A stretch of DNA of 34,256 nucleotides from Candidatus Binatus sp. (GTDB lineage: Bacteria; Desulfobacterota; Binatia; Binatales; Binataceae). The stretch spans positions 1-34,256 of the forward strand of contig JBAWCX010000161.1 in the NCBI GenBank assembly GCA_049590495.1, given 5' to 3'. Positions 5,163-34,092 of the stretch are shown here, piece after piece; within the stretch, counting starts at the first letter, position 1; each line of letters starts with the position of its first letter. Position numbers and translations under genes: made by a program. The notes under the pieces were generated by a model that was given only the letters and a program-made list of their open reading frames with translations, was not told where the DNA came from and made no database searches.

Positions 5163-5540
5163 TCAGATCTTCGCCTCGCGCGCTTCCTGTGCGGATTTGC
5201 ATGCGATGCAAAGCGTGGTGACGGGGCGCGCCTTCAGCCGCTCGATGCCGATGTCGCCGCCGCATTCCTCGCATTGCCCGTACGAGCCGTCTTCGATTCG
5301 CGCGACTGCCTCGCCGATTTTGCTGAGCAGCTTGCGCTCGCGATCGCGCATCCGCAGCAGGAAATTGCGATCCGATTCGAGCGCGGCGCGATCGGTCGGG
5401 TCGGCGTAGGCCTCTTCCGACTCGTTGTTCATGGTGCCGACCGCGCGCTCCGATTCCTGGAGAATGTCGCGTTTGCGGCCTTCGAGCAATTTTCGGAAGA
5501 GCTTGAGGTCTCTTTGCCTCACGGTTGAACAATCCGTCAC
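5163..5540 (-). CDS. DksA/TraR family C4-type zinc-finger protein
   Basis: 125 aa with a coiled-coil-like N-terminal part and CEECGGDIGIERLKARPVTTLCIACK (CxxC-17-CxxC). Confidence 0.85.
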   Translation of the reverse strand: MTDCSTVRQRDLKLFRKLLEGRKRDILQESERAVGTMNNESEEAYADPTDRAALESDRNFLLRMRDRERKLLSKIGEAVARIEDGSYGQCEECGGDIGIERLKARPVTTLCIACKSAQEAREAKI

Positions 5541-5592
5541 GAGCCGAGTTTTTGATTCTATAGACGCCCTGCTACCATGTAAAGATTGCGCG

Positions 5593-6774: not shown

Positions 6775-6779
6775 AAAGA

Positions 6780-7433
6780 ATGACTTCCGAACGCCTGCAT
6801 ATCAACGAAATTTTCTACAGCATCCAGGGCGAATCCACGCACGCGGGCCGTCCATGCGTGTTCGTGCGGCTCACCGGATGCAACCTGCGATGCAAATGGT
6901 GCGACACCGAGTACGCATTCTATGAAGGCCGGCGGATGCCGATTGCGGAAGTCGCCGAAATAATTCGCGGCTACCGATGCGACCTGCTCGAAGTGACCGG
7001 CGGCGAGCCGCTGCTGCAGGAAGGCGTGTATCCGCTGACTCGCGAGATGCTCGAATCAGGCCACACCGTGATGATCGAGACGTCGGGTGCTGCGGACGTA
7101 AGCAAGCTCGACCCGCGCGTCATCAAGATCATGGACCTCAAGTGTCCGGGCAGCGGCGAATGCGAACGAAATCTCTGGAGCAACCTCGACCATCTGACGA
7201 TGCGCGACGAGATCAAGTTCGTCGTCGCGGATCGCGCGGACTACGAATGGGCCAGGGACGCGATCGTTACGCGCGGCCTGGCGACGCGCGCGGGCGCGTT
7301 GTTGCTGAGCCCGGTGTTCGGACAACTGGAGCCGGCCGCGCTCGCGTCGTGGATACTCGAGGATCGATTGCCGGCGCGGATGCAATTGCAGATGCATAAG
7401 CAGATCTGGCCAAGCATCTCCCGCGGGGTGTGA
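6780..7433 (+). CDS. queE: 7-carboxy-7-deazaguanine synthase (radical SAM)
   Basis: INEIFYSIQGESTHAGRPCVFVRLTGCNLRCKWCDTEYAF is the QueE signature with the CxxxCxxC-type radical SAM cluster motif. Confidence 0.9.
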   Translation: MTSERLHINEIFYSIQGESTHAGRPCVFVRLTGCNLRCKWCDTEYAFYEGRRMPIAEVAEIIRGYRCDLLEVTGGEPLLQEGVYPLTREMLESGHTVMIETSGAADVSKLDPRVIKIMDLKCPGSGECERNLWSNLDHLTMRDEIKFVVADRADYEWARDAIVTRGLATRAGALLLSPVFGQLEPAALASWILEDRLPARMQLQMHKQIWPSISRGV

Positions 7434-10643: not shown

Positions 10644-12557
10644 TCACCGCTCGAGCTTGCCGGAACCGAACATGACGCGATGCCAAATCTCGGTCGCGAG
10701 CGCCATCCAGACCGGGAATCCGTAATCACCCTCGCCGTTCCGATATGAGCCCATCAGAACTTGGAATCCGGACTTCAGTTTCGCCGCGTCGACCCATCCG
10801 CGTTGGGCGATTTCCAGCTTATCTAACGAGATCAGCGCCGCGTTGTGCTTGACGGATTCGAGGACAGGAGCATTGAAGCCCGCCTTGGTGACTCGCATAC
10901 GCACGGCTTCCGGCAAGATCCCTGTCATCGCGTTGCGAACGATATATCGTTCGTACCCGCCGCGGCGCAATTGATCGTTCGGCAATGCAAACGCGAATTC
11001 GATAAGCCGCCGATCGTTAAACGGCCGCCGCGTATCCTGGCCGATCCTTGCGATAGCCTGCTCCACCATCACGGCAGTTACAGGGAGCTCTGCGTGACGA
11101 AACAGTTCGTAAATCTCGCGGTGCGCGATTCCCCGCACTGGGGACCCTCGTTGCTCCGCGATCAGCCGCTCGTAGAGATCGGTACGGCGCACAAAGTCGG
11201 GCGTGACCCAATCCGGGTATGGCAGACGACCAGGGCGCAATCTCCACCGAGCGAATTCGCGAACGGCCGGCGGCAACAGCGGTATCGCCGCAGTCCTGAG
11301 AAATAACCGCAGCCGACCAGAGTGTGTCATCGACCTGGTTTCCGATTGATCGGCATCGATCCGTACCTGCCGAACCAGGGCAGCTATCCGCAAGGAGCGG
11401 AGCAGGTCGGCGTTGTCGTCGATGCAACCCCCGAACCATTCATCGCCGCCTTCGCCGGTCAGAGTCACGCGGGCACCCTTGCGCCTTCCGAGCCGGCGGA
11501 ACCCGAAGCCAGAGGTCAGATTCGGATAATTCGGAAAATCCCTGAACTGCCGGACCTGGGCGGCGAGATCCACCTCGCTGGAGGGCGTCGACAGCTCAAG
11601 ATTGAGCGCGACAGCGCACTTCGCTCCCACCGCCTTTATATATTCGCTCTCGTCGCACAAGAGTCCCGGGAACACTTGCGAGAACGACTCAAATCGATCG
11701 CATCCGGCCGCTCCCTGCTCTTGAAGAATTCGCGCGACGGATACGATCGACGACGAATCGAGGCCGCCACTCAAGTCCGATGCGACCATCCCCGCGGCGC
11801 GCAATCTGCAGCGGACGGCTTCCGTGAAGATCGAGAGGAAGTGGTTCGCATACTCGTCGTCATTTCGATGACGGATCTCGCGGGCGGGATCGAGGTCGTA
11901 GTAGCGTCGGGTGACGAGCCGGTCGCGGCCAACGATCAGCAGATGCGCGGCAAGGAGCTGGTGGATGGAACGATAGAGAGTCGGTTCGGCGCTGTCGGTC
12001 CGGTTGGCGAGGTATTCGCCGACCACCTCTTCATTCGGCTCGCATGGGACGTCGCAGTGGAAGAGTTGATGCAGCTCGGAGCCGCAGACGAATTTTTTGC
12101 GATCCGCATAGTAGTAGAACGGCTTCATCCCGGTCGGATCGCGCGCGCAGATGAGCGTTCTGGTCTGCGAATCCCAGATGACGATCGCGAAGTCGCCGAT
12201 CAGCTTGACGGCAAACTCTTCGCCCCAGCACTGGTAGCTGCGCAGCACGAGTTCCGCGTCGGTGTTGTTGCGGAGTTCGAGTCCCGCGTCAACCAGTTGC
12301 GGCCGCAAGTCGGTGCCGTTGTCGATTCGGCCGTCGAAGACGAGGCGGTAACGCGCCGCTTCGTCCGACCACGGCTGTTGCTCGTCGATCGCTTCGGGCG
12401 TCGCGTGCAACATGCGCTGGCCGAGCGCGACCGCGCCCTCGGCCCACATTCCTCCGCCGTCCGGCCCTCGATGGTTGACCGCGTCGAGCATCGCGGTGAT
12501 CGTACGGATTTCAACCGGTCGCCCGTCGCGGTTGAATATCGCGCCGATTCCGCTCAA
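10644..12557 (-). CDS. asparagine-synthetase-like lasso peptide cyclase (C protein)
   Basis: 637 aa with an AsnB-type fold. The N-terminus is (M)SGIGAIFNRDG with no Cys2 nucleophile. It has the PP-loop motif DLSGGLDSSSIV. It lies directly downstream of a PqqD/RRE gene. The start is TTG with no obvious SD. Confidence 0.85.
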   Translation of the reverse strand: MSGIGAIFNRDGRPVEIRTITAMLDAVNHRGPDGGGMWAEGAVALGQRMLHATPEAIDEQQPWSDEAARYRLVFDGRIDNGTDLRPQLVDAGLELRNNTDAELVLRSYQCWGEEFAVKLIGDFAIVIWDSQTRTLICARDPTGMKPFYYYADRKKFVCGSELHQLFHCDVPCEPNEEVVGEYLANRTDSAEPTLYRSIHQLLAAHLLIVGRDRLVTRRYYDLDPAREIRHRNDDEYANHFLSIFTEAVRCRLRAAGMVASDLSGGLDSSSIVSVARILQEQGAAGCDRFESFSQVFPGLLCDESEYIKAVGAKCAVALNLELSTPSSEVDLAAQVRQFRDFPNYPNLTSGFGFRRLGRRKGARVTLTGEGGDEWFGGCIDDNADLLRSLRIAALVRQVRIDADQSETRSMTHSGRLRLFLRTAAIPLLPPAVREFARWRLRPGRLPYPDWVTPDFVRRTDLYERLIAEQRGSPVRGIAHREIYELFRHAELPVTAVMVEQAIARIGQDTRRPFNDRRLIEFAFALPNDQLRRGGYERYIVRNAMTGILPEAVRMRVTKAGFNAPVLESVKHNAALISLDKLEIAQRGWVDAAKLKSGFQVLMGSYRNGEGDYGFPVWMALATEIWHRVMFGSGKLER

Positions 12558-12593: not shown

Positions 12594-12872
12594 TCATTCG
12601 CCACGCGTAACCCGCAACATCCCCTTCGCAGCCAGTTCGTCCACCAGCTTTTCGAAATCGGCCCTGAGACTCGCCGGCTCCACGTCATATTTGGCGAGCA
12701 AAGAATCGATTACGCGGTCGGATAAACCGTACTCCGCGATCAGTCGCCACATTTCACTGCCGGCACCGGTAAGGCCAAAATAATGTTGGCTGGCGAGATC
12801 GAGCATCAGAACCTCGCCGCCAAATTCGCGCCAGACCACCTCTTCAGAAATCTCGATCTTCACGCGTGCCAC
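12594..12872 (-). CDS. PqqD-family RiPP recognition element (lasso B1 protein)
   Basis: About 90 aa. VVWREFGGEVLMLDLASQHYFGLTGAGSEMWRLI...LVDELAAKGML is the PqqD/RRE pattern. The second GTG at 12863 has the better SD (AAGGTGG, 5 nt upstream), so the true start may be 12863. Confidence 0.85.
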   Translation of the reverse strand: MARVKIEISEEVVWREFGGEVLMLDLASQHYFGLTGAGSEMWRLIAEYGLSDRVIDSLLAKYDVEPASLRADFEKLVDELAAKGMLRVTRGE

Positions 12873-12879: not shown

Positions 12880-13050
12880 CTAGACCCGCGCGCACCGCCG
12901 GTCAGCCCGACGTACCGCACGGGACCTTACCTCGTAGACGAAAGCTGACGCCTCGCCGGGCCGGACTACTTCCGTCATCGCCCGCTCGAATGCCGAGACT
13001 CGTGGACGGTCGATGAGGTACTGGCGATGCTCGTCAAGGATAAGCGACAA
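12880..13050 (-). pseudogene. 5' fragment (first ~34 codons) of a PRMT-like SAM methyltransferase gene
   Basis: A TTG start with a GAAGG SD encodes LSLILDEHRQYLIDRPRVSAFERAMTEVVRPGE and then unrelated sequence up to a stop. It is 87% identical at DNA level to the 5' end of the methyltransferase pseudogene at 32775. Confidence 0.6.
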
Positions 13051-13069
13051 AATTGCACCTTCATGTCAG
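12953..13069. repeat. left arm of 117-bp inverted repeat (partner 32756..32872)
   Basis: Hand alignment of the reverse complement against 32756..32872 gives 102/117 identical with no gaps. Confidence 0.8.
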
Positions 13070-13204
13070 AGTTTAAATTATGCGACACTGCGGATACAAC
13101 GGCCCGCGCGGACCGCTGTCACTTTGACTCCGTCTCCGCTACCGCAATTTGCGATGTTGGTATTGTCGCCCCGGCGAGTCTAAGCTCGGCATCAAGGATT
13201 CAGG

Positions 13205-14158
13205 ATGCAAGGCAGAGTTCGGCAGCCGGCACAAAAAAAGGCGCAGCAACTGCTGTCCGGATTATCACTCTCTAAAGACGAAATTCGTACTCGACTCGCG
13301 CAAGCCTCGAACCCTTCGTATTGGCGGGCTCTGTACCCTCCATTTTCCGTTCTGGAAAACTCTCCGCCGGTTCCCGACCTTCCCGTCTTCGACGCGTCGA
13401 CGGTCGCTCGCTATGGCAGCAGCCTGGATGAATGGGGCTACTTCCGAACGGACACGCCGATCGTGGATAGCCTTACGGCCTCGCTCCTGGAATGTACCGA
13501 GAGCATGCGCAGAGCTGGGTGGCCGCCGGCGTTCGCGTATGTATACGACCAGCTCTGGACGCTTTGGCGGATTGCGCCGATCACGCAGATTCTCACCGCG
13601 GCTCTAGGCCCAGGTTGCAGGTATATTCCGCACGGCTGGTGCCACTACGTGCAGCCGGTGCGCGGCGCCAGCGGATGGCCGCCGCACATCGACGGCAATC
13701 TGCCGAACCGGATGTCGATTTGGATTCCGCTTACCGACGCCACCATCGACAATGGCTGCATTTACCTGGTGCCGAAGGACTTGAATACCTCGGCGATCGG
13801 ACAGCGGCGCGAATTGCGCAAGGCCAGCAATCTGCAGATGCGCGAACTGCTCCAGCGCGGTCGGGCCATTCCGGCGCCCGCTGGGTCGATTCTCGGTTGG
13901 CAGTTCCGGCTTCTCCATTGGGGTTCGACGGCGCAAGGCCCGGGAAATCCGCGGGTCAGCCTGGTATTCGAATTCATCGCGGCGCACGAAGCGCCCATCA
14001 GGAACGAAGTGCCGCTCTATGAGCCTGCGGGTCCGCTCCCGGACTTGTCGCTCAGACTGAATTCCATCGGGCGCGCCATTCGCCAGTACATGAGGTACGA
14101 GCTGAGAATGCGGCGCTACGCCGAGCTTGCGAAAGAGCTCATGGCTCTAAGGACTTGA
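13205..14158 (+). CDS. phytanoyl-CoA dioxygenase (PhyH) family Fe(II)/2OG oxygenase
   Basis: GWPPHIDG (HxD), a distal His in LLHWGS, and IWIPLTDATIDNGCIYLVP are typical of PhyH. AAGGA SD lies 6 nt before ATG 13205. Confidence 0.75.
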   Translation: MQGRVRQPAQKKAQQLLSGLSLSKDEIRTRLAQASNPSYWRALYPPFSVLENSPPVPDLPVFDASTVARYGSSLDEWGYFRTDTPIVDSLTASLLECTESMRRAGWPPAFAYVYDQLWTLWRIAPITQILTAALGPGCRYIPHGWCHYVQPVRGASGWPPHIDGNLPNRMSIWIPLTDATIDNGCIYLVPKDLNTSAIGQRRELRKASNLQMRELLQRGRAIPAPAGSILGWQFRLLHWGSTAQGPGNPRVSLVFEFIAAHEAPIRNEVPLYEPAGPLPDLSLRLNSIGRAIRQYMRYELRMRRYAELAKELMALRT

Positions 14159-14395: not shown

Positions 14396-14977
14396 TCAGC
14401 CGACGTACCGGCGTATAGTACCGAGGCTTGGCTGCCTATCCATTTTCCAATCCGCACTAGGGCCGTTCTGATCCACGTAGTGCAGTGTCACCTGCGCGGC
14501 ATGTTCACCGGCGAAGGGTTCGCGCCAGTGGGCGCACTCGCACCCGCGATAGAGCAAGCCATCCCCGGGCTCCAACTCGATCGCCGAAGATCCTGCCGGT
14601 CCATTGATCCAGATCGGCCAGGGGCGTCGCGCTTGATAACCCAAGCACAGGGTTATGCTGATTTCACATGCAGGCCGATCTGTGTGCTTTTGAACAGCGT
14701 CGTCTTTGCTGTACATGCGAAAATACGAGAAGGTCGGAAACAGCTTCAAGTCTGTAGCCGACTCGACTTCAGGCAGCAAGTCGCCTAGCAGCTCGTCTAT
14801 GACGAAATCGTTTTTGCCCGCCAAGGCGTTGGGTACCTGGGAATCTCCACCCAGCATCGCGCCGTAGTCGGCCAACTTCCGTACGTACTTGTATAAAAGT
14901 GATAGACGCGGATCGGTCAGCAGCGACCGCCATACCGCATACTTCTGATGCGCGAAAGTATCTGCCAAGGCGGTCAT
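14396..14977 (-). CDS. Fe(II)/2-oxoglutarate-dependent oxygenase
   Basis: 193 aa with VQKHTDRPACEISITLCL (HxD), LEPGDGLLYRG..CAHWREPF (distal His/Arg) and QVTLHYV. It is the last gene of the precursor-kinase operon. Confidence 0.7.
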   Translation of the reverse strand: MTALADTFAHQKYAVWRSLLTDPRLSLLYKYVRKLADYGAMLGGDSQVPNALAGKNDFVIDELLGDLLPEVESATDLKLFPTFSYFRMYSKDDAVQKHTDRPACEISITLCLGYQARRPWPIWINGPAGSSAIELEPGDGLLYRGCECAHWREPFAGEHAAQVTLHYVDQNGPSADWKMDRQPSLGTIRRYVG

Positions 14978-15076: not shown

Positions 15077-16165
15077 TCAGTTCAAGGCCAGGTCGGCGGC
15101 TATGGCGTCGCGGACCAGGCGCAGCTTGGAAAGGTCGTTCGGCAGCGAGAGCAGCGCGGCAGGCACTGAATCCACGATACGTCGAGTGAAATGAAACTCA
15201 CGTTCGAGCATAGCGCGATCCGTGCTGTCCAGCCGGATGCTGTGCTTGACCAGCTTCATGAACGCCGCGTGCAGGGGCAAACGCTCAATCAGCGGCCCGC
15301 TGGTGGCAGCAGCGTCGTCATCGCCTCGCGTCAGAAAATAAATCCGCGCCACCGGAAGAGGCTCGAGCGGAAACGCGGTGCCGAAACTCGACGCCGGCAC
15401 GCGCCGCTTGGCGGTATATTCCGCGACCGGCTCACTATCGCCTCCCGGCTTCAGGAACTGTATCCCGTCGTCTCGAAGCTTGATGCTCGGATGCGACGAC
15501 CACGCCACGACGGCACCGCCTTGTTCATCGATCACCAGACAGTCGTCGGTAAGGAAGTCGCCGCCCCCGGCCGCGAGCTGGGCGGCAATGGTCGATTTGC
15601 CTGCCCCGGAATCTCCTGCGAACACGCAAACACCGGTGGCGTCGGTACGAACGGCGGCGGCATGCTGCACGTAGCGGCCCCGCAAGGCGACTACCGGGGG
15701 AATAACGTGATCGAGCAGGAGCGCCCGAATTATCAGATCCGACGCGGGCTGTCGGCGCGCGACGCACTTGATGTGGCGTCCGCCGCGATCGATCGTGAAA
15801 TCCGCGAATTCGTGGAAGCGGAGAAAATATCCATCGCGCGTCCGCGCCCGCGCTGTCCATGGCAGACCATCAGGCAGGCTCTGCCGCAGAAACCATTGCG
15901 ATGGCTCCGGAACGTCGCCGCTGACATCGCCAAGTTCGATAGCGATAAAATGATCGGAGTCACATGCAACGCCGGAAGGCTCGCCAAGTTCCGGAATCAG
16001 CGTGTCGCTGATCAGGGAGAACCCGCATAGCCGATAACGGTACTTCGGCCCGCTGATTCGATCGGGTCGAAAGGGCACGGCGGATCCACCAGCCTGCGAT
16101 TGTGTTCGACGCGGAGGTTCCTGCGGTGGAGGGTCTACAAAACGAATGGGCCCGTGACTTTTCAA
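15077..16165 (-). CDS. HPr-kinase-like (HprK-related) RiPP kinase
   Basis: It has the P-loop FAGDSGAGKSTIAAQLA followed by FLTDDCLVI, as in the HprK C-terminal domain. Its TTG start overlaps the stop of the precursor ORF. Confidence 0.8.
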   Translation of the reverse strand: MKSHGPIRFVDPPPQEPPRRTQSQAGGSAVPFRPDRISGPKYRYRLCGFSLISDTLIPELGEPSGVACDSDHFIAIELGDVSGDVPEPSQWFLRQSLPDGLPWTARARTRDGYFLRFHEFADFTIDRGGRHIKCVARRQPASDLIIRALLLDHVIPPVVALRGRYVQHAAAVRTDATGVCVFAGDSGAGKSTIAAQLAAGGGDFLTDDCLVIDEQGGAVVAWSSHPSIKLRDDGIQFLKPGGDSEPVAEYTAKRRVPASSFGTAFPLEPLPVARIYFLTRGDDDAAATSGPLIERLPLHAAFMKLVKHSIRLDSTDRAMLEREFHFTRRIVDSVPAALLSLPNDLSKLRLVRDAIAADLALN

Positions 16166-16317
16166 CCCTTCTTCTTGGACCCGGGGGCGTCGGGACCGCT
16201 GATAGATTTCGGGGTGGCAGTGATCTTTGTGACGTTGCCGTAGTCCACCAATGTGGGCGGAACGTACTTCGTCAACTTCTGTTTCTTCTTCGCGTCGGCC
16301 GAGCGATTTTCTTTCAC
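16162..16317 (-). CDS. lasso peptide precursor (A peptide), 51 aa, not in the supplied ORF track
   Basis: GTG 16317 is preceded by AGGAG (16325-16329) at 7 nt. Product: MKENRSADAKKKQKLTKYVPPTLVDYGNVTKITATPKSISGPDAPGSKKKG. The leader has Y-17, P-14, L-12, G-8 and T-2 relative to a cleavage site after Ala34. The stop overlaps the kinase start by 4 nt (TTGA). Confidence 0.75.
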   Translation of the reverse strand: MKENRSADAKKKQKLTKYVPPTLVDYGNVTKITATPKSISGPDAPGSKKKG

Positions 16318-16392
16318 CAGAAAGCTCCTCTCATCGGAACCAGCTTGCAGAGAACCCAGCTCCGTTCATGGGGTTTTCCCCCACCCGACAGA

Positions 16393-16422
16393 ACCCTACC
16401 TGTTGCAACCGTGCCATGTCAA
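16393..16422 (-). promoter_or_regulatory. candidate sigma70-type promoter for the precursor-kinase-oxygenase operon
   Basis: On the minus strand: TTGACA (16422-16417), 18 nt, TAGGGT (16398-16393), about 75 nt upstream of the precursor start. The -10 is weak. Confidence 0.3.
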
Positions 16423-16827
16423 ACGCTTGACTGTGCCGCACGCAACCAATGCCTCCAGCGCCGCTTGACGCGTCTACACCAGCCTAGAAATCGCATGGCG
16501 TTTGCAAGCCGCCCGGGGTTATGGAAGGTTTTGAATCAGCTTTCAAAAAGCGAGACTTTCAGGTCGTTGCGTGTCTCGGACGCGAAACCAGGCAAATTTG
16601 ATGTCCAAAGTACACGCCCTCAATGAACTGCTAGAGCATGCCCGGGGCTCTCCGACAAGGAGCTCAGGTTTCGCGACGAACTTGCAGTAAACCCGGCTAT
16701 TGGCGGCAACTTTGCCCGAAGGTTCCAATTGATTCGTCGCCAGCCATGGCTGAGACGCAACCAGTAGATCGTCAGATTGTTGAAAATTGCGCCAATCAAA
16801 TGAGCAGCCTGCGGCTGAGACTCGCCA

Positions 16828-18380: not shown

Positions 18381-21300
18381 TCAGGAGCCCTTGCCCTTGA
18401 GGGTTACTTTGTGCGGACTGGTCGGGTCGGAGCCGACGGTGCCGGCCAGCGTCGCGGTCTCGGTGACGGACTTGGCCGGCTGGAAGGTTACCGCGACGGT
18501 GCATGACGAGTTGCCCGCAAGCGTCGAGCCGCAGGTGCCGCCAGTGATCTTGAAGACGCCAGCATTGAGGCCGGTGACGGCGCTGTCAATCGACAGGGTC
18601 ATTGGCGACATGTTGGTGACGGTGGCGGTGAGCGTCTTCGACGACGTGCGCGGGACGGTGCCGTAGAGCAGCGACGTCGGCGCGACGGAGACCGGGATGG
18701 TCGCGCCGGTGGCCAGGGCTACATCGTAGGGCCCGAGCGAATCGGGACTGTCGGACACTGACAGCGTCGCCGATTCCGTTCCCAGCGCACCCGGCTTGAA
18801 GGTGACGGCCAGGGTGCACGAGGCCTGGGCCGCAAGCATGGCCGGCGCGACGGGGCAGGTGCTGCCGGTAATCGAGAAGTCGGCGGCGTTGGTCTCGCTG
18901 AAACTCTCGCTCAACGTCACCGGCCGCGACTGATTGTTGGTAACAGTGACATTGTTCGCCGCGCTAGAGCCGAACTTCACACTGCCGAACACCGAAGTGG
19001 TGCTCGAAGTACTCAAGCCGCCGATGCCGGTGCCGGAGAGCGCGACTTTCTGTGGGCTGGTCATGGAGTTGTCGCTGATCGCAAGCGTCGCGCTATGCAC
19101 CCCAAGCGAAGCGGGCGTGAATGCAACGCCAAGCGAGCAGGACTTACGAGGGGCGACCTTTACGGGAATCGCGCCGCAGGTTCCCATCCCGCTTAGCGCA
19201 TATTCACGATCTGACGTCGTCGCGCTCGAGATGATCAGCGGATGGGTCCTACCCTTGTTGGACACCGTCACGGTCTTGGCGGACGTCGCACCTACGGCCA
19301 CATCGCCGAACGCGAGCGAAGAAGCAGCCGACATCGAAGTAGTCGGGGTCGCGGCCGGCGTAGCAGTCATCGTCGTGGTGGCCGTCGTGGTTGCGGTCGC
19401 TGTAGCAGTCGCCGTTGCCGTCTGAGTCGCAGAGGCGGTCGCGGTTGTGGTCGGCGTTGCAGTCGATGTCGTGGTCGCCGTCGAAGTCTGAGTCGCGGTG
19501 GCGGTCGCGGTTATTGTCGGCGTCGAAGTTGCTGTGGCCGTCGCTGTCCGCGTCGAGGTGTTCGTCGACGTGGCAGTCAACGTTGGGGTGGCCGTCACAG
19601 TTGTGGTCGGCGATGCAGTTGATGTAGCGGTCGCAGTTGCCGTCTGAGTCGCCGTGGCGGTCGCCGTCGCCGTCTTTGTCGCGCTGGCGGTCGCGGTTAT
19701 GGTCGGCGTTGTGGTTGACGTGGCCGTCGCGGTCTGCGTCGAGATTATCGTCGCCGTGGTAGTTGGCGTCGCGCTCGATGTCGATGTCGAGGTCGCGGTC
19801 TTTGTCGCGCTGGCGGTCGCGGTCATGGTCGGCGTTGTGGTTGATGTGGCCGTCGCCGTTTGCGTCGAGGTTATCGTCGCCGTGGCAGTTGTCGTTGCTG
19901 TGGCAGTCGGCGTCGCGGTTGATGTAGCGGTGGCGGCCTTAGTCGCAGTTGTGGTCGGCGTCGCAGTTGATGTCGCAGTTGGCGTCGCGGTCGATGTCGA
20001 TGTCGAGGTCGCCGTCGCAGTCTTCGTCGCGCTGGCGGCGGTCGCGGTTGTGGTCGGCGTTGCGGTTGAGGTCGCGGTCGCCGTTGCCGTCTGAGTTGCC
20101 GTGGCGGTCGCCGTCGCCGTGGCAGTTAACGTTGCACTGTTAGTCGGCGACGCCGTCTTTGTCGCGCTGGCGGTCGCAGTCGCGGTCGGCGTTGCGGTTG
20201 ATGTGGCGGTCGCCGTTTGCGTCGAGGTTATCGTCGCCGTGGCAGTGGTCGTTGCTGTGGCAGTCGGCGTTGTGGTTGATGTCGAGGTCGCCGTTGCCGT
20301 CGCAGTCTTCGTCGCGCTGGCGGTCGCAGTTGCGGTCGGCGTTGCGGTTGATGTGGCGGTCGCGGTTGATGTGGCGGTCGCGGTTGTGGTCGGCGTCGCA
20401 GTCGATGTGGCAGTCGCCGTCTGAGTCGCAGTTGCGGTCGCCGTGCGCGTCGCGGTTGATGTCGCGGTCGCAGTGGCGGTCGCCGTGCTCGTGGAAGTGG
20501 ATGTCGGGGTCGGTGTCAATGTCGGGCTGGGATTTGGCGCGCCGGTGTAAGCGGTGGCGAACTTGGTCATGTCGGGGCTGCCCCATCCTGTCACCAGGTC
20601 GAAGCCCGCGCCGGCGGGATATCCCGTCACGCCATTGAAGGTGTTGTTGCCGCTGGTTACATCGATCAGCCCGTTGCCGGCCGCGCCCGCCTTGGCCAGC
20701 GCGTAAGTGGTCGGATTGATGAGACCGACACGCGCGGTGCCGGCTTTTTCGGCGATCACCCGGGTAAAGCCCGCCCATAACGGAGCCGACAGGCTGGTGC
20801 CGCCCCAGCAGCACTGGATAATTGCCTTGCCCGACGAGTCGGCGCCGATGAAGACGCCGGGCGACGACGCGATCATCGAGATATCGGGAATGTCGCGCAT
20901 ACCGTCGTTGAAGGTGCCGGTCTGCCACGACGGCTTCGAAAATATGTTACTGACGCCGCCGCCGCTCGAGTCCCACGCCGTTTCGATTCCGCCGGGCGCA
21001 ACCCCGATCACGCTGGTGTCGTTACCGGAGCTATTGAATTGAGGCGAGAACTGCGTTCCGCCGACGGCGGTGACGTGCGGACTGGCCGCCATCTCGCTCG
21101 GATTCAGGCTGGTGCCGGTTATGCAGCCATTGTCGACCGGATTGTATTGCAGCCCGGCCGCGCCCCAATCGCCCGAGCTTATGAACACCGATTGGCCCTG
21201 CGCCGCTGCTTGCGAAAACAACGTATCCAGTCCGGTGAAAAATGAATTCGTCGAGTTGCAGAAGATAAAACTGATGCTAACCGCGCCGCAGATATTGTCG

Positions 21301-22331
21301 GTGATCGCCGACGAGATCGAGGTGTAGAGGTCCGAGTTGACGTAAACGTGAATCGGCGTCGCCGGCGCTGTTGCGTGCGAGTAGTCGATATCCAGGTTCG
21401 TCTCGGTCTCGTCGCCGGTGGTGCCGGGCGAGGTGCCGGTGGGCAGAACGCGCGTGAGGTTCATCGCGGGGAAACCAAAGTTCGAATCGAACAGCACCGG
21501 CGCCGCATCGAGATAATCCGAGTCCTCGGCCAGCGCCACGCAATCGGGCGACGCGGTGCCGCTGTTGCCCCCAGCTATCAGCGGAGCTTCGTTGTAGAAC
21601 GTCTCGATGTCAAAAGGACCAAAGGCGCTCGATGAACCAGACTTGGCGCCCGGATCGAGCGGCGCACTCTCGTTTTCGTTGGACGGGCTCGGATCGGCCG
21701 TATCAGCAAACGCGAGCACCAGCTCGGTCGGCGAATGAGCGGTCGAGGGACTGATCGGGGGCGTCCGATGAAGTCCCGCGGGCGCGAGCGCGTGCATGTT
21801 GTCCAGTCCCCGGATGTTCGCAATCAGGCCGTCCAGTTCGGCCGGTACCGACGGATCGGATGTGTTCCCGAAATTCGCTCCATCGGTGACAATCTCGGTG
21901 GCAAAGGCCGCCTCGGCGGTCGCGACGTTGCCCTTGACCGCGATCGTTCGCGAGCGGCCATCGACTTTGACGATCGCAAAGCCCGCATCCGCGAGCCACT
22001 TCTTTACTGCCGCGATTTGCGCCGCGGTCGGGCCGAAGCGCTGGTTGAATTCCGTAGCGCTCAGCCAGTGATGGTACTGGGGCGAGTTGGGATCCTGCTG
22101 GGCGGCCAACAACTCCTCGAGCGCAGCCTGGTTGTGCAGGCCCAAAACTATTGTGAGTTCGAGCGGGGCGCTGCCGTCGGCCCGCATCGCTGCCAGATTG
22201 ACGATATCCGCGGGATGGTTCCCGTGAATTTTTGACGGCCCCGCAGCGTAAGACGATCCAGCCAGGGCCATGCCGCCCACCAGCACGCACACCACCGCCA
22301 CGACCCGAAGCGGGACTCGTCCGATTGACAT
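18381..22331 (-). CDS. secreted sedolisin (peptidase S53) with pro-kumamolisin activation domain, ~395-aa Thr/Ala-rich linker and three C-terminal Ig-like (choice-of-anchor-D/HYDIN-like) domains
   Basis: It has a signal peptide (VVAVVCVLVGGMALAGSSYA) and a pro-domain (PLELTIVLGLHNQAALEELLAAQQDPNSPQYHHWLSATEFNQRFGP). S53 motifs are ETNLDIDYSHATAP, FISSGDWGAAG and GGTSLSAPLWAGF. Three ~100-aa repeats follow the pattern FG.V..G...TVTV.N....L......F...G.TC...L....SC...V.F.P...G...A.L. Confidence 0.85.
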   Translation of the reverse strand: MSIGRVPLRVVAVVCVLVGGMALAGSSYAAGPSKIHGNHPADIVNLAAMRADGSAPLELTIVLGLHNQAALEELLAAQQDPNSPQYHHWLSATEFNQRFGPTAAQIAAVKKWLADAGFAIVKVDGRSRTIAVKGNVATAEAAFATEIVTDGANFGNTSDPSVPAELDGLIANIRGLDNMHALAPAGLHRTPPISPSTAHSPTELVLAFADTADPSPSNENESAPLDPGAKSGSSSAFGPFDIETFYNEAPLIAGGNSGTASPDCVALAEDSDYLDAAPVLFDSNFGFPAMNLTRVLPTGTSPGTTGDETETNLDIDYSHATAPATPIHVYVNSDLYTSISSAITDNICGAVSISFIFCNSTNSFFTGLDTLFSQAAAQGQSVFISSGDWGAAGLQYNPVDNGCITGTSLNPSEMAASPHVTAVGGTQFSPQFNSSGNDTSVIGVAPGGIETAWDSSGGGVSNIFSKPSWQTGTFNDGMRDIPDISMIASSPGVFIGADSSGKAIIQCCWGGTSLSAPLWAGFTRVIAEKAGTARVGLINPTTYALAKAGAAGNGLIDVTSGNNTFNGVTGYPAGAGFDLVTGWGSPDMTKFATAYTGAPNPSPTLTPTPTSTSTSTATATATATSTATRTATATATQTATATSTATPTTTATATSTATATSTATPTATATASATKTATATATSTSTTTPTATATTTATATITSTQTATATSTATPTATATASATKTASPTNSATLTATATATATATQTATATATSTATPTTTATAASATKTATATSTSTSTATPTATSTATPTTTATKAATATSTATPTATATTTATATITSTQTATATSTTTPTMTATASATKTATSTSTSSATPTTTATIISTQTATATSTTTPTITATASATKTATATATATQTATATATSTASPTTTVTATPTLTATSTNTSTRTATATATSTPTITATATATQTSTATTTSTATPTTTATASATQTATATATATATTTATTTMTATPAATPTTSMSAASSLAFGDVAVGATSAKTVTVSNKGRTHPLIISSATTSDREYALSGMGTCGAIPVKVAPRKSCSLGVAFTPASLGVHSATLAISDNSMTSPQKVALSGTGIGGLSTSSTTSVFGSVKFGSSAANNVTVTNNQSRPVTLSESFSETNAADFSITGSTCPVAPAMLAAQASCTLAVTFKPGALGTESATLSVSDSPDSLGPYDVALATGATIPVSVAPTSLLYGTVPRTSSKTLTATVTNMSPMTLSIDSAVTGLNAGVFKITGGTCGSTLAGNSSCTVAVTFQPAKSVTETATLAGTVGSDPTSPHKVTLKGKGS
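19340..20525 (-). repeat. in-frame low-complexity coding repeat (Thr/Ala/Ser/Pro, about 395 codons) inside the S53 gene
   Basis: The translation is almost only T, A, S and P with occasional Q, K and I. Longer units recur three times (TTTATATITSTQTATATST.TP..TATASATKTA). The DNA is an imperfect GCN/ACN repeat that creates long artefactual VAVAV ORFs on the other strand. Confidence 0.85.
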
Positions 22332-26234: not shown

Positions 26235-26348
26235 GGTAACCAGGAATTGTATTGTTGCGCGTGCAAGTGATAGGGCATGAGCTTGGGACTGCCAGTCCCC
26301 CGGTATTTGGAGTAACCCATCCAGATGAGAGTCGAGCGCAGTCAAAAC

Positions 26349-27359
26349 ATGCTTGTCACGCTGACACGAACGGGTATTTCAACCCACACCACGCCATCGC
26401 GATTGCACTTAGCCCGTGAGCATTTCGATCAACACAACTATCTGCGGATACCAGGTTTCATCGAACCCGCGATGCTCAGGGTGATTCAGCTTTCTCTGCA
26501 CAACGCTGCGTTCAAAATAAGAGAGAACGAGGTCGGGCGCGATCTAACGCTTGCGGACAACCCGTTGACCAATGTCTTTAAAATCCTGATGAACGATCCG
26601 AAGCTGTTCCGACTGATTCGACGGGTGACCGGGAGCGGTCCCATTGGATGCTTTGCTGGCAGGTTGTACCAGATGGTCGCGCGGCAGGGGCTAGCGTTCA
26701 CCTGGCACGATGACATGCTCAACGATCGAAAGGTCGCGATCTCGATCAACCTGAGTGACGCAGGCTACCGCGGCGGCACGCTGCAGATTCGCGATACCTC
26801 CCGCGGCGTGCGCGAGGATGTTCCGAACCTGGGTTTTGGCGACGCAATCATCTTCCGCGTTGCCGAGCATCTCGAACACCGCGTCACCCCGGTCGTAGGA
26901 AGAATTCCGAAGACCGCCGTTACCGGATGGTTCTGCTCGCGACCTAGATACTCCACGATTCATCGCGAGATGGTCGCCTTGTCCGAGTCAGCGATCGCTG
27001 TGCGCGCCGTCCGGAAACACGAGAGTCTCGCGTTGCCCAAACCAGACGACACAGTCAAACTCCCGAGCGCCGTCGTTTCTCAAACCTCGGGGCGCGAGAC
27101 GTTTGTAGCAAACATTGGCACCGCGATGTGCTACGGCTTGAATCAAACCGGCAGCCGGGTCTGGGAGCTCCTGGCACAAGGCTACGGGATGCGCACGATT
27201 GCAGGTACCATCGCAAGAGAATACGGGGTCCCGCGCCGCGAAGTGGAACATGACGTCCTCGCGCTGGCCCATCAGCTCGCACAACGCGATCTGATCAAGG
27301 TAGTTCGCAACACTGCCCCGCGACGAGTACGCATGATAGCAGGGGCGGCCAGCCGCTAG
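26349..27359 (+). CDS. fusion protein: prolyl-4-hydroxylase-like 2OG-Fe(II) oxygenase + C-terminal PqqD/RRE domain (array copy 1)
   Basis: N-terminal domain: FTWHDDMLNDRKVAISINLSDAGYRGGTLQI...GDAIIFRVAEHLEHRVTPV..R.T..GWF (HxD...H, P4H-like). C-terminal domain: ETFVANIGTAMCYGLNQTGSRVWELLAQGYGMRTIAGTIAREYGVPRREVEHDVLALAHQLAQRDLIKVV, a PqqD pattern. The start is taken at MLVTLTR by homology with the paralog; the ORF opens at 26325. Confidence 0.8.
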   Translation: MLVTLTRTGISTHTTPSRLHLAREHFDQHNYLRIPGFIEPAMLRVIQLSLHNAAFKIRENEVGRDLTLADNPLTNVFKILMNDPKLFRLIRRVTGSGPIGCFAGRLYQMVARQGLAFTWHDDMLNDRKVAISINLSDAGYRGGTLQIRDTSRGVREDVPNLGFGDAIIFRVAEHLEHRVTPVVGRIPKTAVTGWFCSRPRYSTIHREMVALSESAIAVRAVRKHESLALPKPDDTVKLPSAVVSQTSGRETFVANIGTAMCYGLNQTGSRVWELLAQGYGMRTIAGTIAREYGVPRREVEHDVLALAHQLAQRDLIKVVRNTAPRRVRMIAGAASR

Positions 27360-27366
27360 ACAAGCG

Positions 27367-29208: not shown

Positions 29209-30180
29209 ATGCTTGCCACGCTTACACGACTTGGGATTTCATCTGACGTCACGCCATCCCAATTGCGCGCGGCCCGTGAGCATTTCGACCAGCACAACTA
29301 TCTGCGAATGCGAGGCTTCATCGATCCCGGCCTCTTCCGCGTGATTCAGCGGTACCTCCGCGGCGCGGTGTTCGAAAGACAATTCTGGAACAGTGGGCAC
29401 GATCTCACGATCTCGAATAGCCCCCTGGCCGATGTCGTCCACGTTCTGATGAACGATCCAAAATTGCTCCGGCTAGTTGGGCAAGCCACGGGATGCGGTC
29501 CAATCGCATCCTTTAAGGGCCGCATTTACCGAATGGTCGCGCGCAAGGGACTGAGGTTCGATTGGCACCCTGACATAAAAAACGATCGGAAAGCCGCGAT
29601 CTCCGTCAACTTGAGCGACGCGGAATATGGCGGCGGGACCCTCGAAATTCGCGACAATTCCAGCGGCGTACGCGAGGTAGTTCCGAACCTCGGGCCGGGC
29701 GACGCGGTAATTTTCCGTGTCGCAGAGCATCTCGAGCACCGTGTCACCCGAGTGACGGGGAAGGTTCCGAAAACCGCCATCGCCGGATTCTTCTGCTCAC
29801 GACCACGGTACCGTTCAGTACATCGGGAGTTGGTGGCCCGGTCCGAATCCGCTATCGCTGCAGGTGCCGGCCGAAAAAAGCGGCTCGCGTTTCCCTCACC
29901 AAATGACGTCGTGAAAATCTCGGCCGCAGTCATATCTCAAACCGCACGGCGCGAGACCTTTGTGGCGAACGTCGCAACCGCAATGTGTTACGGCCTGAAT
30001 CAAACCGGCGGCCGAATTTGGGAACTCTTCGCCGAGGGCCTCGCGATGCGCTCGGTAGCAGACACCATCGCACGCGAGAATGGCGCGCCGCGTCGCGACG
30101 TCGAGCGGGACGTCCTCGCACTCGCCCGCCAACTCGCGCAACGTGATCTGATCAAGGTAGTTCGCGCCCAGTTAGATTAG
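29209..30180 (+). CDS. fusion protein: prolyl-4-hydroxylase-like 2OG-Fe(II) oxygenase + C-terminal PqqD/RRE domain (array copy 3)
   Basis: 323 aa and colinear with copy 1. It has FDWHPDIKNDRKAAISVNLSDAEYGGGTLEI, HLEHRVTRV, and the RRE part ETFVANVATAMCYGLNQTGGRIWELFAEGLAMRSVADTIARENGAPRRDVERDVLALARQLAQRDLIKVV. Confidence 0.8.
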   Translation: MLATLTRLGISSDVTPSQLRAAREHFDQHNYLRMRGFIDPGLFRVIQRYLRGAVFERQFWNSGHDLTISNSPLADVVHVLMNDPKLLRLVGQATGCGPIASFKGRIYRMVARKGLRFDWHPDIKNDRKAAISVNLSDAEYGGGTLEIRDNSSGVREVVPNLGPGDAVIFRVAEHLEHRVTRVTGKVPKTAIAGFFCSRPRYRSVHRELVARSESAIAAGAGRKKRLAFPSPNDVVKISAAVISQTARRETFVANVATAMCYGLNQTGGRIWELFAEGLAMRSVADTIARENGAPRRDVERDVLALARQLAQRDLIKVVRAQLD

Positions 30181-30374: not shown

Positions 30375-31571
30375 ATGAATTCTCCCGTATCACGGACGCC
30401 TGACACCGAGCGCGAGCTGTTGCTGCGATGCTGCGCGGCGTCCGGGCCGATGACGGATCGCGCCGCGATGGGGGAGTGCGCCGGGCGCCGCGTCGATTGG
30501 GATCGATTTCTCGCGCTGGCCGATCGTAACCGCGTCACGCCAATGGTGGGCGCGCGTCTCGGCGCCGAAGGCATTGCCAATCCTCCTCCATACGTCGCCC
30601 GCGCGCTCCGGTTCAGCTACGAGATCAACGCACTGCGAAACAACTATCGCGCCGGCTGCGTAACGGAAATCGTCGATTCCTTTGCGGCCGGCGCCGTCCC
30701 CGCGATTGCGATCAAGGGTCCGGCGCTTGCGATTGCTGCGTACGGTGACGTGGCAATGCGGGTGTTCGACGACCTGGATTTCATGGTGCGGCTTGCGGAT
30801 CTGCGGCGTGCGGCCAAGGCGCTGGAGCGAGTCGCCTACGCGTCGGCAGTCTATCGGCCCGAGGTTGTCGAAAGCGGATTTTTTCCCGACACGTCGCTCG
30901 ACTTCTCACGCGAGGACAGCGTCGTGGACCTCCATTGGGCGTTGTCACCTGGATACTTCCCGTTTGCTCCCGAAGGCGAGCAAGTTTGGAATCGTACCGT
31001 CGAGATCGAGCTGCTCGGCAGGCGCGTCCGCGTGCTCGGTCCCGCCGACTCGATTCTGTTTCAGGCCTGCCATGGCTCCAAGCACGGCTGGATGACGCTC
31101 TCCCAGATCTGCGACTTCGCCCACCTGCTCGCGACCGCCACGACCGTCAACTGGACCAGCCTTCTCGACGACGCCCGGCGGACGCAAAGCCTTAGAATGG
31201 TCCTGCTCGCGGTGCACTTGACGCATTCGCTCGAGCTTTGCGAGGTGCCCGCCGAATTGCTCGACGCTGCCCGCCGCGATTCGCACATCGCGTCGCTCAG
31301 CCGGCGCGTTACGCAGGGTATTTTCGATTCGAGGCGTGCGGTTAAGTTGGACGATTGGTCGATAGCACTCGGAACCATCGAATCGATGCGCGGCCGCGCC
31401 AGATACATCGTGCACCGCATGATTACCCCCAAGATGAGCGACCGCGCGCTGATGCCCTTGCCGCGCGCGCTATACCCGCTGTACTACCTGGCGCGTCCGC
31501 TGCTAGTGGCGATCAAGCATCGCCAACGGATGTTTGGCAAACGCGAGACTGCTGGGCTGCCGCGGATTTGA
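30375..31571 (+). CDS. uncharacterised nucleotidyltransferase family protein (NTP_transf_5 / PF14907-like) of the kind found in kinase-containing lasso clusters
   Basis: 398 aa with DWDRFLALADRNRVTPMV, AIKGPALAIAAYGDVAMRVFDDLDFMVRLADL and VVDLHWAL, the pattern of this family. Confidence 0.7.
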   Translation: MNSPVSRTPDTERELLLRCCAASGPMTDRAAMGECAGRRVDWDRFLALADRNRVTPMVGARLGAEGIANPPPYVARALRFSYEINALRNNYRAGCVTEIVDSFAAGAVPAIAIKGPALAIAAYGDVAMRVFDDLDFMVRLADLRRAAKALERVAYASAVYRPEVVESGFFPDTSLDFSREDSVVDLHWALSPGYFPFAPEGEQVWNRTVEIELLGRRVRVLGPADSILFQACHGSKHGWMTLSQICDFAHLLATATTVNWTSLLDDARRTQSLRMVLLAVHLTHSLELCEVPAELLDAARRDSHIASLSRRVTQGIFDSRRAVKLDDWSIALGTIESMRGRARYIVHRMITPKMSDRALMPLPRALYPLYYLARPLLVAIKHRQRMFGKRETAGLPRI

Positions 31572-32076: not shown

Positions 32077-32601
32077 TCAGGGATTTTCAACTGGAACTCG
32101 CTCGATACCATCAGGCTTCCCAACACAATGATCAGCGACGGGCATCGGTGCGTAGCTTCGATGTTCACCTTCGCCGGTAACAATTCTGTCGCCACATTCA
32201 AGCCATGCATGACCGGTCAGAGCATCAGCTGAATTTTTTGCGACTCCCAGTCGGATTTGGCTGCTGACGCCGCGACGCGCGAGCATCTCGCGCCCGGCGA
32301 TCGCTCTCACGAGGCAATTCTTAGCAGTCGGTACGATACGGCCGGCCGTCTCGACCGCCCAGCCGATTCTTGCAGCATCCGTATCGGCAAACACCGCCTC
32401 AGTCTGGCGCGCCACGGGTTGCAGAATTTTGCGGATCGGAACGAACATCACCGTAATTCGGGCCTTGATGACCGAGATTATGGCCGATGCGAGCAGCCAG
32501 CGATCAGGCGCCGCCAGCTTGAAGAATTTACGCAACCGCGTTTGCATGAGGAGACCTGTCATTGACCTTAGACGTACTAGGTCATCAGTGGCAACTCCCA
32601 T
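32077..32601 (-). CDS. lasso peptide B2 protein (transglutaminase-core-like Cys protease, leader peptidase)
   Basis: AKNCLVRAIAGREMLARRGVSSQIRLGVAKNSADALTGHAWLECGDRIV is the Cys...His...Asp core pattern of stand-alone B2 proteins, preceded by a hydrophobic helix. An alternative start at ATG 32562 has a better SD. Confidence 0.8.
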   Translation of the reverse strand: MGVATDDLVRLRSMTGLLMQTRLRKFFKLAAPDRWLLASAIISVIKARITVMFVPIRKILQPVARQTEAVFADTDAARIGWAVETAGRIVPTAKNCLVRAIAGREMLARRGVSSQIRLGVAKNSADALTGHAWLECGDRIVTGEGEHRSYAPMPVADHCVGKPDGIERVPVENP

Positions 32602-32872: not shown

Positions 32873-33422
32873 CGTGCTCCTTGACTCGGGATCGGGCACC
32901 GGGATACCAGAGCTCTTCGCGCTGAAAGCCCTCGCGTCGCGTGTCTAAGCGATAGACGCCAGCGGACTCACGCAGCTGGAGCGCGAAATCTTCGCGGCTA
33001 ACGGATACGCGGATCGCGCGGTTTGCATTAAAGGGTTATCAACTCGCGTCAAGCTGCCGGAGAAAGTAAACGTCATCATCGGCGACTTGATCGGGCGCTT
33101 CGGGATTGACGGTGGACTAGTCGAGTATTTCGCCTACGCGCGCCATCGGATGGCGCAGCCCGACGTGCGCCCGGTTCCATCCAGGGTTGATCTGTATATT
33201 GCCCCGGTCGAAGCACCACAGACCTGCCGGAAGTTGATTTCTGGAAAACGTCTCCCGCGGGCCGGCGAGATCCGCATCTTTACCCGGACCGAGTCGCCAC
33301 CATGCACCGCGGTCGGCGGATCAACCGGAAAGAATACCCGTGTAGCTCTCTCCTTGAGCCGCCGGACACGGAAGCAGCGCGGTGCCTCACTCCGCGATCG
33401 CGCTGGGCGAAGCGTAGAGTAA
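32775..33422 (+). pseudogene. PRMT-like class I SAM methyltransferase gene with in-frame TAA (32946-32948) and degenerate 3' part
   Basis: A single frame encodes LSLILDEHREYLNNRPRVSAFERAISEVVRPGDVLLDSGSGTGIPELFALKALASRV(stop)AIDASGLTQLEREIFAANGYADRAVCIKGLSTRVKLPEKVNVIIGDLIGRFGIDGGLVEYF... This gives the H..ML.D..R...Y..AI motif, motif I (LD.G.GTGI) and post-I/II motifs. Resemblance fades after about 33250. Confidence 0.6.
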
Positions 33423-33582
33423 TTCTTCGAACATTCAGGGTGGGTCGTTGTTGACCAGGGCGCCTAAGCCCAACCTCTACCGTCGCTATCTGCGCAGCCG
33501 CGGATCGCTGGAGCTGGGCTGCATAGGAATGACCCGGGTGTTCAGCGTCTTCGCCCGACCGCTCCTCGGCATACTCGCTGTG

Positions 33583-34092
33583 AGCGAACTCCATGGCTTG
33601 ATTGCGAAGAAAAGTCCGCCACGATGGTCCCGGCCGTCGGCTTCGTGGAGGCATGTAGCGCGACACGGTGGCTTCGGAGACGCTGAAACCGAGCATCAGA
33701 AGTTCACCGTGGATCCGTGGCGCACCCCACAGAAAGTTGTCGCCGGCCATCCGTGCGATCAGATGACGGACGTCCCTGGAAACCCGCGGACGCCCACCGC
33801 GCCAGCGACCCCGAGATCGATATCGCCAAAGCGTCGACCAGCCGTCACGACGCCAGCGCAAGACCGTCTCGGGCTGGACGATGATCAGGCTCTCGCGCCA
33901 TTGGGGCCACCAACGCGAGAACAAAATCCAAAAAAGCCGATCCCAACGGCGAAAGCACGGGCGACGAGTTCCGCTGCGCTCCAGCACTGCAATTTGATGG
34001 CGCAGGGCGATCCACTCCAACAGCAACGCGGTGAGAGTTCGAGGTTCGCCGTTTGGTACCTCCGCGAGTGATTCGCTTGTCGGCATCCTCAC
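33583..34092 (-). mobile_element. 5' half of an rve/integrase-core IS transposase gene, truncated before the catalytic core
   Basis: ..ALRHQIAVLERSGTRRPCFRRWDRLFWILFSRWWPQWRESLIIVQPETVLRWRRDGW..RGGRPRVSRDVRHLIARMAGDNFLWGAPRIHGELLMLGFSVSEATVSRYMP...PSWRTFLRNQAMEFA is the conserved N-terminal half. The rest of ORF 33280..34092 is unrelated Arg-rich sequence. Confidence 0.7.

Follow-up and report, generated by a model that had tools for sequence, protein, structure and literature searches.

The 34,256-nt contig JBAWCX010000161.1 of Candidatus Binatus sp. (hereafter the window, meaning this whole stretch of DNA) carries on its minus strand a 51-codon open reading frame (ORF) directly upstream of a gene for an HprK-like kinase. 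The question raised by this locus is whether the small ORF encodes the precursor of a lasso peptide and, if so, where its core begins and which residues close the ring. The ORF is a real, constrained gene that almost certainly encodes the precursor of a lasso-type peptide made on ribosomes and then modified (a RiPP), and we consider it likely that the precursor is processed as proposed below, with Thr35 joined to Asp43.

The precursor gene and its conservation

Read on the minus strand, the ORF translates as V/MKENRSADAKKKQKLTKYVPPTLVDYGNVTKITATPKSISGPDAPGSKKKG, with the AGGAG, GTG start and TGA stop given in a preliminary description of this DNA, and its absence from an ORF list with a 60-aa limit is explained by its length. 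Residues Y18, P21, L23, G27 and T33 fit exactly the leader signature that had been proposed for it (Y..P.L...G.....T., that is, YxxPxLxxxGxxxxxTx). The precursor ORF is the single match to this pattern in six frames of the whole window, compared with 0.03-0.06 matches in shuffled windows (≤0.003 when Asp/Glu at core position 7-9 was added to the pattern), indicating that the match is not due to chance; the same six-frame search revealed no further precursors in the window. In addition, the NCBIfam model NF033521 ('lasso RiPP family leader peptide-containing protein') aligns to residues 18-33 with 20.0 bits (curated cut-off, 19 bits). This score, together with homologues of the lasso proteins C, B1 and B2 in the window (Table 1), bears out the assignment as a lasso-type precursor.

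A word-indexed search of 5.8 billion proteins returned 20 relatives of the precursor with 61-86% identity, one of them from a Candidatus Binatus metagenome-assembled genome (MAG). Y18, P21 and T33 are invariant in 21/21 aligned precursors and L23 is kept in at least 90%, the invariant positions of the alignment being Y18, V19, P21, V24-G27, V29-T33, K37, D43, K50 and G51; the residue at -1 and the core region show the same pattern across 28 sequences. Between Y18 and D43, variable sites among 12 loci are distributed 9/5/22 over codon positions 1/2/3, and the ratio of non-synonymous to synonymous substitution rates (dN/dS) of 0.02-0.10 is the lowest among the cluster genes. A chance ORF is excluded by this conservation and codon-position pattern. 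AGGAG occurs at the same place in 11 of the 12 aligned loci.

The position of the gene is likewise conserved. A scan of GTDB, using one genome per species and an alignment of the kinase as query, recovered eight loci, all from Binataceae or from MAGs labelled 'uncultured delta proteobacterium', and each of these eight species representatives has the small ORF immediately upstream of its kinase. The precursor also precedes the kinase in seven metagenome loci (L001-L007), and does so even where identity of the kinase falls to 54% (L022) or 36% (L021). Conservation upstream of kinase homologues was the point on which the preliminary description had staked its claim beforehand, and the ORF was present at every kinase homologue examined. 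A literature search found no papers on lasso peptides in Binatota, and the sequences recovered so far place the precursor family only in uncultured Binataceae, soil bacteria of this candidate phylum.

On the minus strand the gene order in the window is MT218, precursor, kinase, 193-aa protein, PhyH (opposite strand), B1, C and a CxxCxxCC protein, such that B1 and C lie on the strand of the precursor, 3.3-5.7 kb downstream. An intact ORF is present for each of C, B1, B2, the kinase, PhyH, the 193-aa protein and MT218. C, B1 and B2 accompany the precursor in every relative locus that is sufficiently long, and eight loci (L004, L007, L011-L015 and L022) share the order kinase, PhyH, B2, PRMT/PrmA-like methyltransferase, B1, C. 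No ATP-binding cassette (ABC) transporter was seen in the window.

Core start, ring residue and C-terminal tail

With T33 at -2 and cleavage after Ala34, the core is TPKSISGPDAPGSKKKG and Asp43, its sole acidic residue, is at position 9. Asp43 is invariant in 27/27 distinct close sequences; in the same set position 3 (K37) is always Lys, position 6 is always Ser or Thr, and position 1 holds T (20 sequences), A (5), K (1) or D (1). Known lasso rings comprise 7-9 residues. A profile search of 1.84 billion representatives for distant relatives yielded six (P0032-P0037) whose leaders likewise finish with ...K(I/L)T-x. Read in the T33 register, the cores of these relatives begin with N, N, G, N, G and T and place Asp at 9, 9, 8, 8, 8 and 8, and two of them have the classical Gly1-Asp8 arrangement (GTKSVSAD... 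and GANTVGND...). Kinase-associated lasso leaders are reported to have YxxPxL at -17 to -12 (PMC10368454), and the T33 register agrees with this spacing. Provided that the peptide is processed at all, the Thr1-Asp9 register with cleavage after Ala34 is, on these alignments, very probably the correct one and the best supported, as had been proposed, with the distant relatives giving Asp at 8 or 9.

As a separate observation, the distant kinase-linked precursor of locus L021 (4346-4504), which reads MDDRTTKSPSEKSRKLRPYQAPRLVSFGQVELLTK up to the cleavage point and TGGNTTTDEDARKKVAG beyond it, also has Thr1 (with Asp8) in the canonical register; an alternative register with a Gly start is possible for this precursor.

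Thr35 takes the place of the classical Gly, Ala, Ser or Cys at core position 1. The preliminary description had held that characterized lasso peptides start with one of these four residues, a generalization that is outdated. Gly and Ala do predominate, but all residues other than Pro turned up at position 1 in a large-scale survey of precursors (PMC12670498, PMC13632552), and characterized exceptions include Asn1 in metanodin (PMC12670498) and Phe1 and Glu1 in palassoptides (PMC13632552). A limited literature search found no characterized Thr1 lasso peptide. Thr1 is thus uncommon rather than rule-breaking, and less exceptional than first claimed. The T/A/K/D drift at this position suggests that the cyclase is tolerant of residue 1.

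The C-terminus of the window's peptide differs from that of its family. Of 27 distinct close precursors, 24 end in xCL (...KKGSCL in the L004 or L011 type), and the six distant relatives share this ending, their cores being otherwise unrelated. A lineage-specific deletion of ~40 nt, common to the window and its closest relative, locus L008, took away the final three codons and the stop of the precursor gene together with some of the spacer; L006 lost xCL separately, via an in-frame TGA. The truncated allele was found on 17 contigs, L008 having a variant of it that differs by one residue, and it shows three synonymous changes and one non-synonymous change. Judged from these alignments, the 8-residue tail APGSKKKG, which contains no aromatic residue and no Arg and had earlier been described as short, Lys-rich and without an aromatic plug, is a derived truncation.

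The loss of xCL is paralleled by that of a gene. Comparison with L001, L004, L007 and L013 identified the stub of a PRMT/PrmA-like methyltransferase gene, at which ~1 kb has been deleted from the window. The methyltransferase gene and xCL occur together in 10/10 distinct loci (L001, L004, L007, L009, L011-L015 and L022) and also in the distant loci L017-L020, where neither kinase nor PhyH lies beside the precursor on the available sequence, while none of the four loci without the gene (the window, L008, L006 and the distant L021) has CL. Because three distant cores contain neither Lys nor Arg, the methyltransferase probably does not act on these residues, and the co-occurrence suggests that it may act at the C-terminal Cys-Leu. 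No paper was found that connects lasso peptides with PhyH, with PRMT-like enzymes or with a C-terminal Cys-Leu.

The kinase, the second cluster remnant and other features of the window

The kinase has a Walker A motif (GDSGAGKST) but only weak sequence matches (Pfam Hpr_kinase_C, E 1e-3; TIGR04355, E 1e-8), and a sequence comparison with PDB gave nothing useful. An AlphaFold2 model (predicted local distance difference test score, pLDDT, 89) matched PEPCK (E 7e-9) and HprK/P (E 1e-5; template-modeling score, TM, 0.55-0.61 on the target) in Foldseek. From this model, the protein is assigned the HprK/PEPCK fold as an HprK-like cluster kinase. The longest kinase ORF (15077..16165) opens with TTG at 16165-16163 and overlaps the precursor stop by 4 nt. 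This overlap, noted previously as a sign of translational coupling, is present in the sequence, but the coupling does not hold, since the kinase start is most likely GTG 16078; TTG 16165 was rejected in its favor from the aligned loci and the gene callers. In 10 of the 12 aligned loci, an ATG that starts the kinase lies ~100-150 nt downstream of the precursor's stop codon. The ancestral ATG position (window 16046-16048) is CCG in the window and in L008, and a replacement start 11 codons upstream is ATG in L008 and GTG in the window. Gene callers predict a 333-aa kinase on both contigs (P0038, P0094). Since the aligned loci have a separate, later kinase start, the overlap with TTG 16165 is a by-product of the ~40-nt deletion.

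Two other candidates around the precursor gene were rejected. An antisense ORF of 174 aa (16102..16626, plus strand) is unconserved, its stop-free span being 47 codons in the closest relative and internal stops being found in L011 and L014, and a possible regulatory hairpin in the precursor-kinase spacer folds no better than shuffled sequences (z = 0.37). Neither a sigma-70-like promoter nor a convincing terminator was found around the precursor gene.

Table 1. Features of the window relevant to the precursor gene and its cluster.
Feature	Position	Strand	Remarks
Precursor gene (A), 51 codons + TGA	16162..16317	minus	Start GTG 16317-16315, stop TGA 16164-16162
Leader, residues 1-34	16216-16317	minus	
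Predicted core, residues 35-51	16165-16215	minus	TPKSISGPDAPGSKKKG
Shine-Dalgarno AGGAG	16325..16329	minus	7-nt spacer to GTG start
HprK/PEPCK-fold P-loop kinase, 333 aa	15077..16078	minus	Probable start GTG 16078 (16076-16078), not TTG 16165
B1, PqqD-type RiPP recognition element (RRE)	12594..12872	minus	PF05402, 51 bits (cut-off 23.4); NF033536 and NF033530 partial
C, asparagine-synthetase-like lasso cyclase	10644..12557	minus	Asn_synthase and GATase domains
B2, transglutaminase-like leader peptidase	32077..32601	minus	NF033537, 82 bits (cut-off 33); PF13471
PhyH-family Fe(II)/2-oxoglutarate (2OG) oxygenase	13205..14158	plus	Conserved beside kinase in all relatives
193-aa protein, no Pfam match	14396..14977	minus	HxD...H-like (HTD...H) motif by eye
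MT218, class I methyltransferase-like, 218 aa	16828..17484	minus	Syntenic upstream of precursor in several relatives
Stub of deleted PRMT/PrmA-like methyltransferase	12953..13187	minus	blastn against L001, L004, L007 and L013; tblastn synteny; B2 also at this place in many relatives
2OG-Fe(II) oxygenase fused to PqqD-type RRE, copy a	26325..27359	plus	94% aa identity to L011 gene beside that cluster
2OG-Fe(II) oxygenase fused to PqqD-type RRE, copy b	29209..30180	plus	66% identical to copy a
NTP_transf_5 nucleotidyltransferase-like protein	30375..31571	plus	Also in clusters of L004, L007, L011 and L022
Fragment of second PhyH paralogue (PhyH2), 103 of about 315 aa	31606..31914	minus	In relatives just upstream of precursor
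5' fragment of PRMT/PrmA-like methyltransferase, 161 of 381 aa	32775..33257	plus	Cut off beside IS-like ORF
Insertion sequence (IS)-like ORF, 270 aa, no Pfam match	33280..34092	minus	By eye N-terminal part of IS transposase or integrase
~560-aa multi-pass membrane protein, no Pfam match	24309-26006	plus	Flanks RRE-oxygenase genes
~560-aa multi-pass membrane protein, no Pfam match	27414-29090	minus	Flanks RRE-oxygenase genes

The window also contains a second, fragmentary set of cluster genes, comprising in order an RRE-fused 2OG oxygenase, a membrane protein, the other RRE-fused 2OG oxygenase, NTP_transf_5, the PhyH2 fragment, B2 and the PRMT-like fragment. Proteins of this region share 91-94% identity with their L011 counterparts (window 26325-33261 against L011:1-9126), compared with 72-83% for the kinase, PhyH, B1 and C of the main cluster (193-aa protein, 93%). 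Because of these different identities, the window appears to hold one nearly complete cluster and the remnant of a differently related one, which indicates either two cluster copies that differ in ancestry or recombination. In the remnant, the methyltransferase fragment breaks off at the IS-like ORF that abuts it. The preliminary description had treated B1, B2 and C as one set; homologues of all three are indeed present, but they do not form one contiguous cluster, B2 lying in the displaced remnant. The B2 homologue of L004, L007, L011-L015 and L022 is instead located between PhyH and the PRMT-like gene. The RRE is C-terminal in both 2OG oxygenase copies of the remnant, so that, with B1, the window has three PqqD-type RREs, which could read the same leader. 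The NTP_transf_5 type is found beside kinases in the clusters of phosphorylated lasso peptides (PsmN, PMC9266682; BsfN, PMC10368454). One of the ~560-aa membrane proteins is conserved beside the L011 cluster, and these proteins may be related to glycosyltransferases or to export.

The 193-aa protein is the most conserved of the tailoring genes, with 90-96% aa identity across species compared with 70-83% for other cluster proteins, although its position and orientation vary between loci. A sequence comparison with PDB gave nothing useful; its motif suggests a small Fe/2OG oxygenase.

Outside the cluster, a 1316-aa secreted sedolisin (S53, pro-kumamolisin) protease with C-terminal Ig-like (ASH/Cep192-type) domains is encoded at 18381-22331 (minus strand), and has a ~400-residue low-complexity linker of Thr/Ala/Ser/Pro (ATATST-type repeats) whose repeat length differs from that in L008. 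A nucleotidyltransferase ORF (4258-5532, minus strand) and the longest ORF of a LarC-type nickel-insertion gene (5425-6774, plus strand) overlap by about 100 nt, and the LarC-type gene is followed by a gene for a small radical-SAM protein (window 4258-7433); gene starts in this region probably give shorter products than the longest ORFs.

Proposed pathway, alternatives and relation to known systems

In the pathway that we propose, the 34-residue leader, with YxxPxL at -17 to -12 and its invariant Thr at -2, would be bound at YxxPxL by the PqqD-type B1 and probably also by the two RRE-fused 2OG oxygenases. B2, a cysteine protease, would cleave after Ala34, and C would link the alpha-amine thus freed on Thr35 with the invariant Asp43 through its side chain, closing a macrolactam of nine residues (T-P-K-S-I-S-G-P-D) and leaving APGSKKKG as the tail. 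The kinase would most likely phosphorylate an internal Ser/Thr of the linear precursor, the best guess being core position 6, where the side chain is always hydroxylated, by analogy with the action of BsfK on core Ser3 (PMC10368454). Further decorations may be added by the PhyH/2OG oxygenases (hydroxylation of Pro, Lys or Asp) and by the nucleotidyltransferase-like protein. The copy in the window is a derived variant, from which the ~40-nt deletion removed xCL and from which the PRMT-like partner was deleted too.

Several points weigh against this pathway. NF033521 scores just 1 bit over its cut-off, the best NCBIfam match of C (NF033535, lasso isopeptide cyclase; 410.8 bits) falls under the cut-off of 525, and the relative P0010 is labelled a hypothetical protein in its NCBI record. 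Drift among T, A, K and D at position 1 while Lys3 is invariant is odd for a ring-forming residue. With a 9-residue ring, Lys would be the sole possible plug in the tail, and the product might be unthreaded. In addition, the only B2 of the window is 15.8 kb from the precursor in the fragmentary second cluster, and the window shows signs of erosion, namely the deleted PRMT-like gene, the truncated PhyH2, the IS-like ORF and the lost ancestral kinase ATG. Finally, the product is a prediction from its genes, as are the place of cleavage, the size of the ring, any threading and every tailoring reaction.

The oddity of position 1 would be removed if the core of the same lasso precursor started at Lys37, with a 7-residue ring (K-S-I-S-G-P-D) and Thr35 at -2. 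Lys37 and Asp43 are both invariant in 27/27 sequences where residue 35 varies, and the tail, with its small and Lys residues, would more readily plug the smaller ring, which is within the 7-9 range. The Tyr-to-Thr spacing is also not absolutely fixed among lasso leaders, being shorter in paeninodin. Nevertheless, it is Thr33 that is invariant, and residue 35, replaced by Ala, Lys or Asp in 7 of the 27 sequences, would make a poor recognition residue at -2. Applied to the six distant relatives, this register gives rings of 6-7 residues, four of them with 6 and so outside the known range, and an N-terminal Lys is no more canonical than Thr. In addition, YxxPxL would move to -19 to -14 from the reported -17 to -12 (PMC10368454), and we regard a start at Lys37 as unlikely.

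The signs of erosion raise the different possibility that the ORF is a true lasso-precursor homologue whose pathway has become an unproductive, decaying relic in the window's lineage. Loss of xCL by deletion, the change of the ancestral kinase ATG to CCG, the displaced B2, the deleted PRMT-like gene and the truncation of both PhyH2 and the second PRMT copy beside the IS-like ORF would all be expected of a relic, as would the raised dN/dS that several cluster genes show (0.45-0.93, from small counts) when the window is compared with L008. On the other hand, the seven genes for C, B1, B2, the kinase, PhyH, the 193-aa protein and MT218 remain intact, the truncated allele is spread over 17 contigs with an excess of synonymous changes (3 to 1), and the kinase has a replacement start, ATG in L008 and GTG in the window, situated 11 codons upstream of the old one. 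Moreover, the independent loss of xCL in L006 after the same methyltransferase loss resembles adaptation rather than random decay, and a relic therefore seems quite unlikely. Still more remote is that there is no lasso substrate at all. The leader could serve RRE-dependent tailoring only, of a linear or otherwise cross-linked peptide, as the three PqqD-type RREs and the score of C under the curated lasso-cyclase cut-off might indicate, or the ORF could be a chance one. The joint presence of C, B1, B2 and the precursor in all relative loci of sufficient length and the placement of the invariant Asp for an 8-9-residue ring in close and distant relatives argue against the former, and conservation and codon-position pattern exclude the latter; we consider this explanation extremely improbable.

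With this ORF, a phylum without cultured representatives gains a conserved lasso-precursor family, and there is a concrete candidate for a Thr1 macrolactam. Comparison of loci offers further leads in a cyclase that would accept T, A, K or D at position 1 and in a PRMT-like methyltransferase tied to the C-terminal Cys-Leu; a methylated Cys-Leu end, if true, would be a lasso modification not yet described. The general understanding of lasso biosynthesis is unchanged by this family. A broader and tentative extension, which is possible but on balance doubtful, is that these loci represent an undescribed, heavily tailored lasso lineage of Binatota, with a drifting ring residue (normally Thr) and naturally promiscuous cyclase, internal phosphorylation, RRE-bearing 2OG oxygenases and a Cys-Leu end that defines the wider superfamily and is methylated by the PRMT/PrmA-like enzyme, of which the window would be a natural double 'knock-out' that is still productive.

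Among known systems, BsfA/BsfK of Bradymonas sediminis (PMC10368454) resembles the locus in its split B1/B2, cyclase C, nucleotidyltransferase-like gene, YxxPxL at -17 to -12 and HprK-type kinase, the kinases being likened by type. Since the precursor does not end in Ser in either case, phosphorylation would be internal, as for BsfK on core Ser3, and B1 also assists a tailoring step in the bsf system (PMC10368454). In contrast to the Thr at -2 and predicted Thr1-Asp9 ring of the window's precursor, BsfA carries Ile at -2 and closes its ring between Gly1 and Asp8, and PhyH, the RRE-fused 2OG oxygenases and the PRMT-like methyltransferase of the family have no counterpart in the bsf cluster. The paeninodin/pseudomycoidin type (PadeK, ThcoK, SyanK, PsmK/PsmN) likewise combines an HprK-like kinase, a gene of the NTP_transf_5 type and split B1/B2, and its kinases act on the linear precursor (PMC9266682). 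However, these kinases modify a strictly conserved C-terminal Ser (PMC9266682), an acceptor replaced by Gly in the window's peptide and by Leu, the family norm, in 24/27 distinct relatives.

With respect to the ring residue, metanodin (Asn1; PMC12670498) and palassoptides A1/A2 (Phe1 and Glu1; PMC13632552) share a position 1 outside Gly/Ala/Ser/Cys, which is predicted here from Thr(-2) and ring size. The palassoptide cyclase PalC is tolerant (PMC13632552), and the T/A/K/D variation suggests a similarly tolerant cyclase in this family; metanodin and the palassoptides have been made and analyzed, whereas the peptide of the window is so far a prediction from its genes. Finally, in the canucin pathway the Fe/2OG hydroxylase CanE tailors the linear precursor with the assistance of CanB1 (PMC9266682), and the likeness lies in RRE-dependent tailoring by an oxygenase, with the difference that here an RRE is fused to each of two oxygenases and that the window holds up to four oxygenase-like genes.

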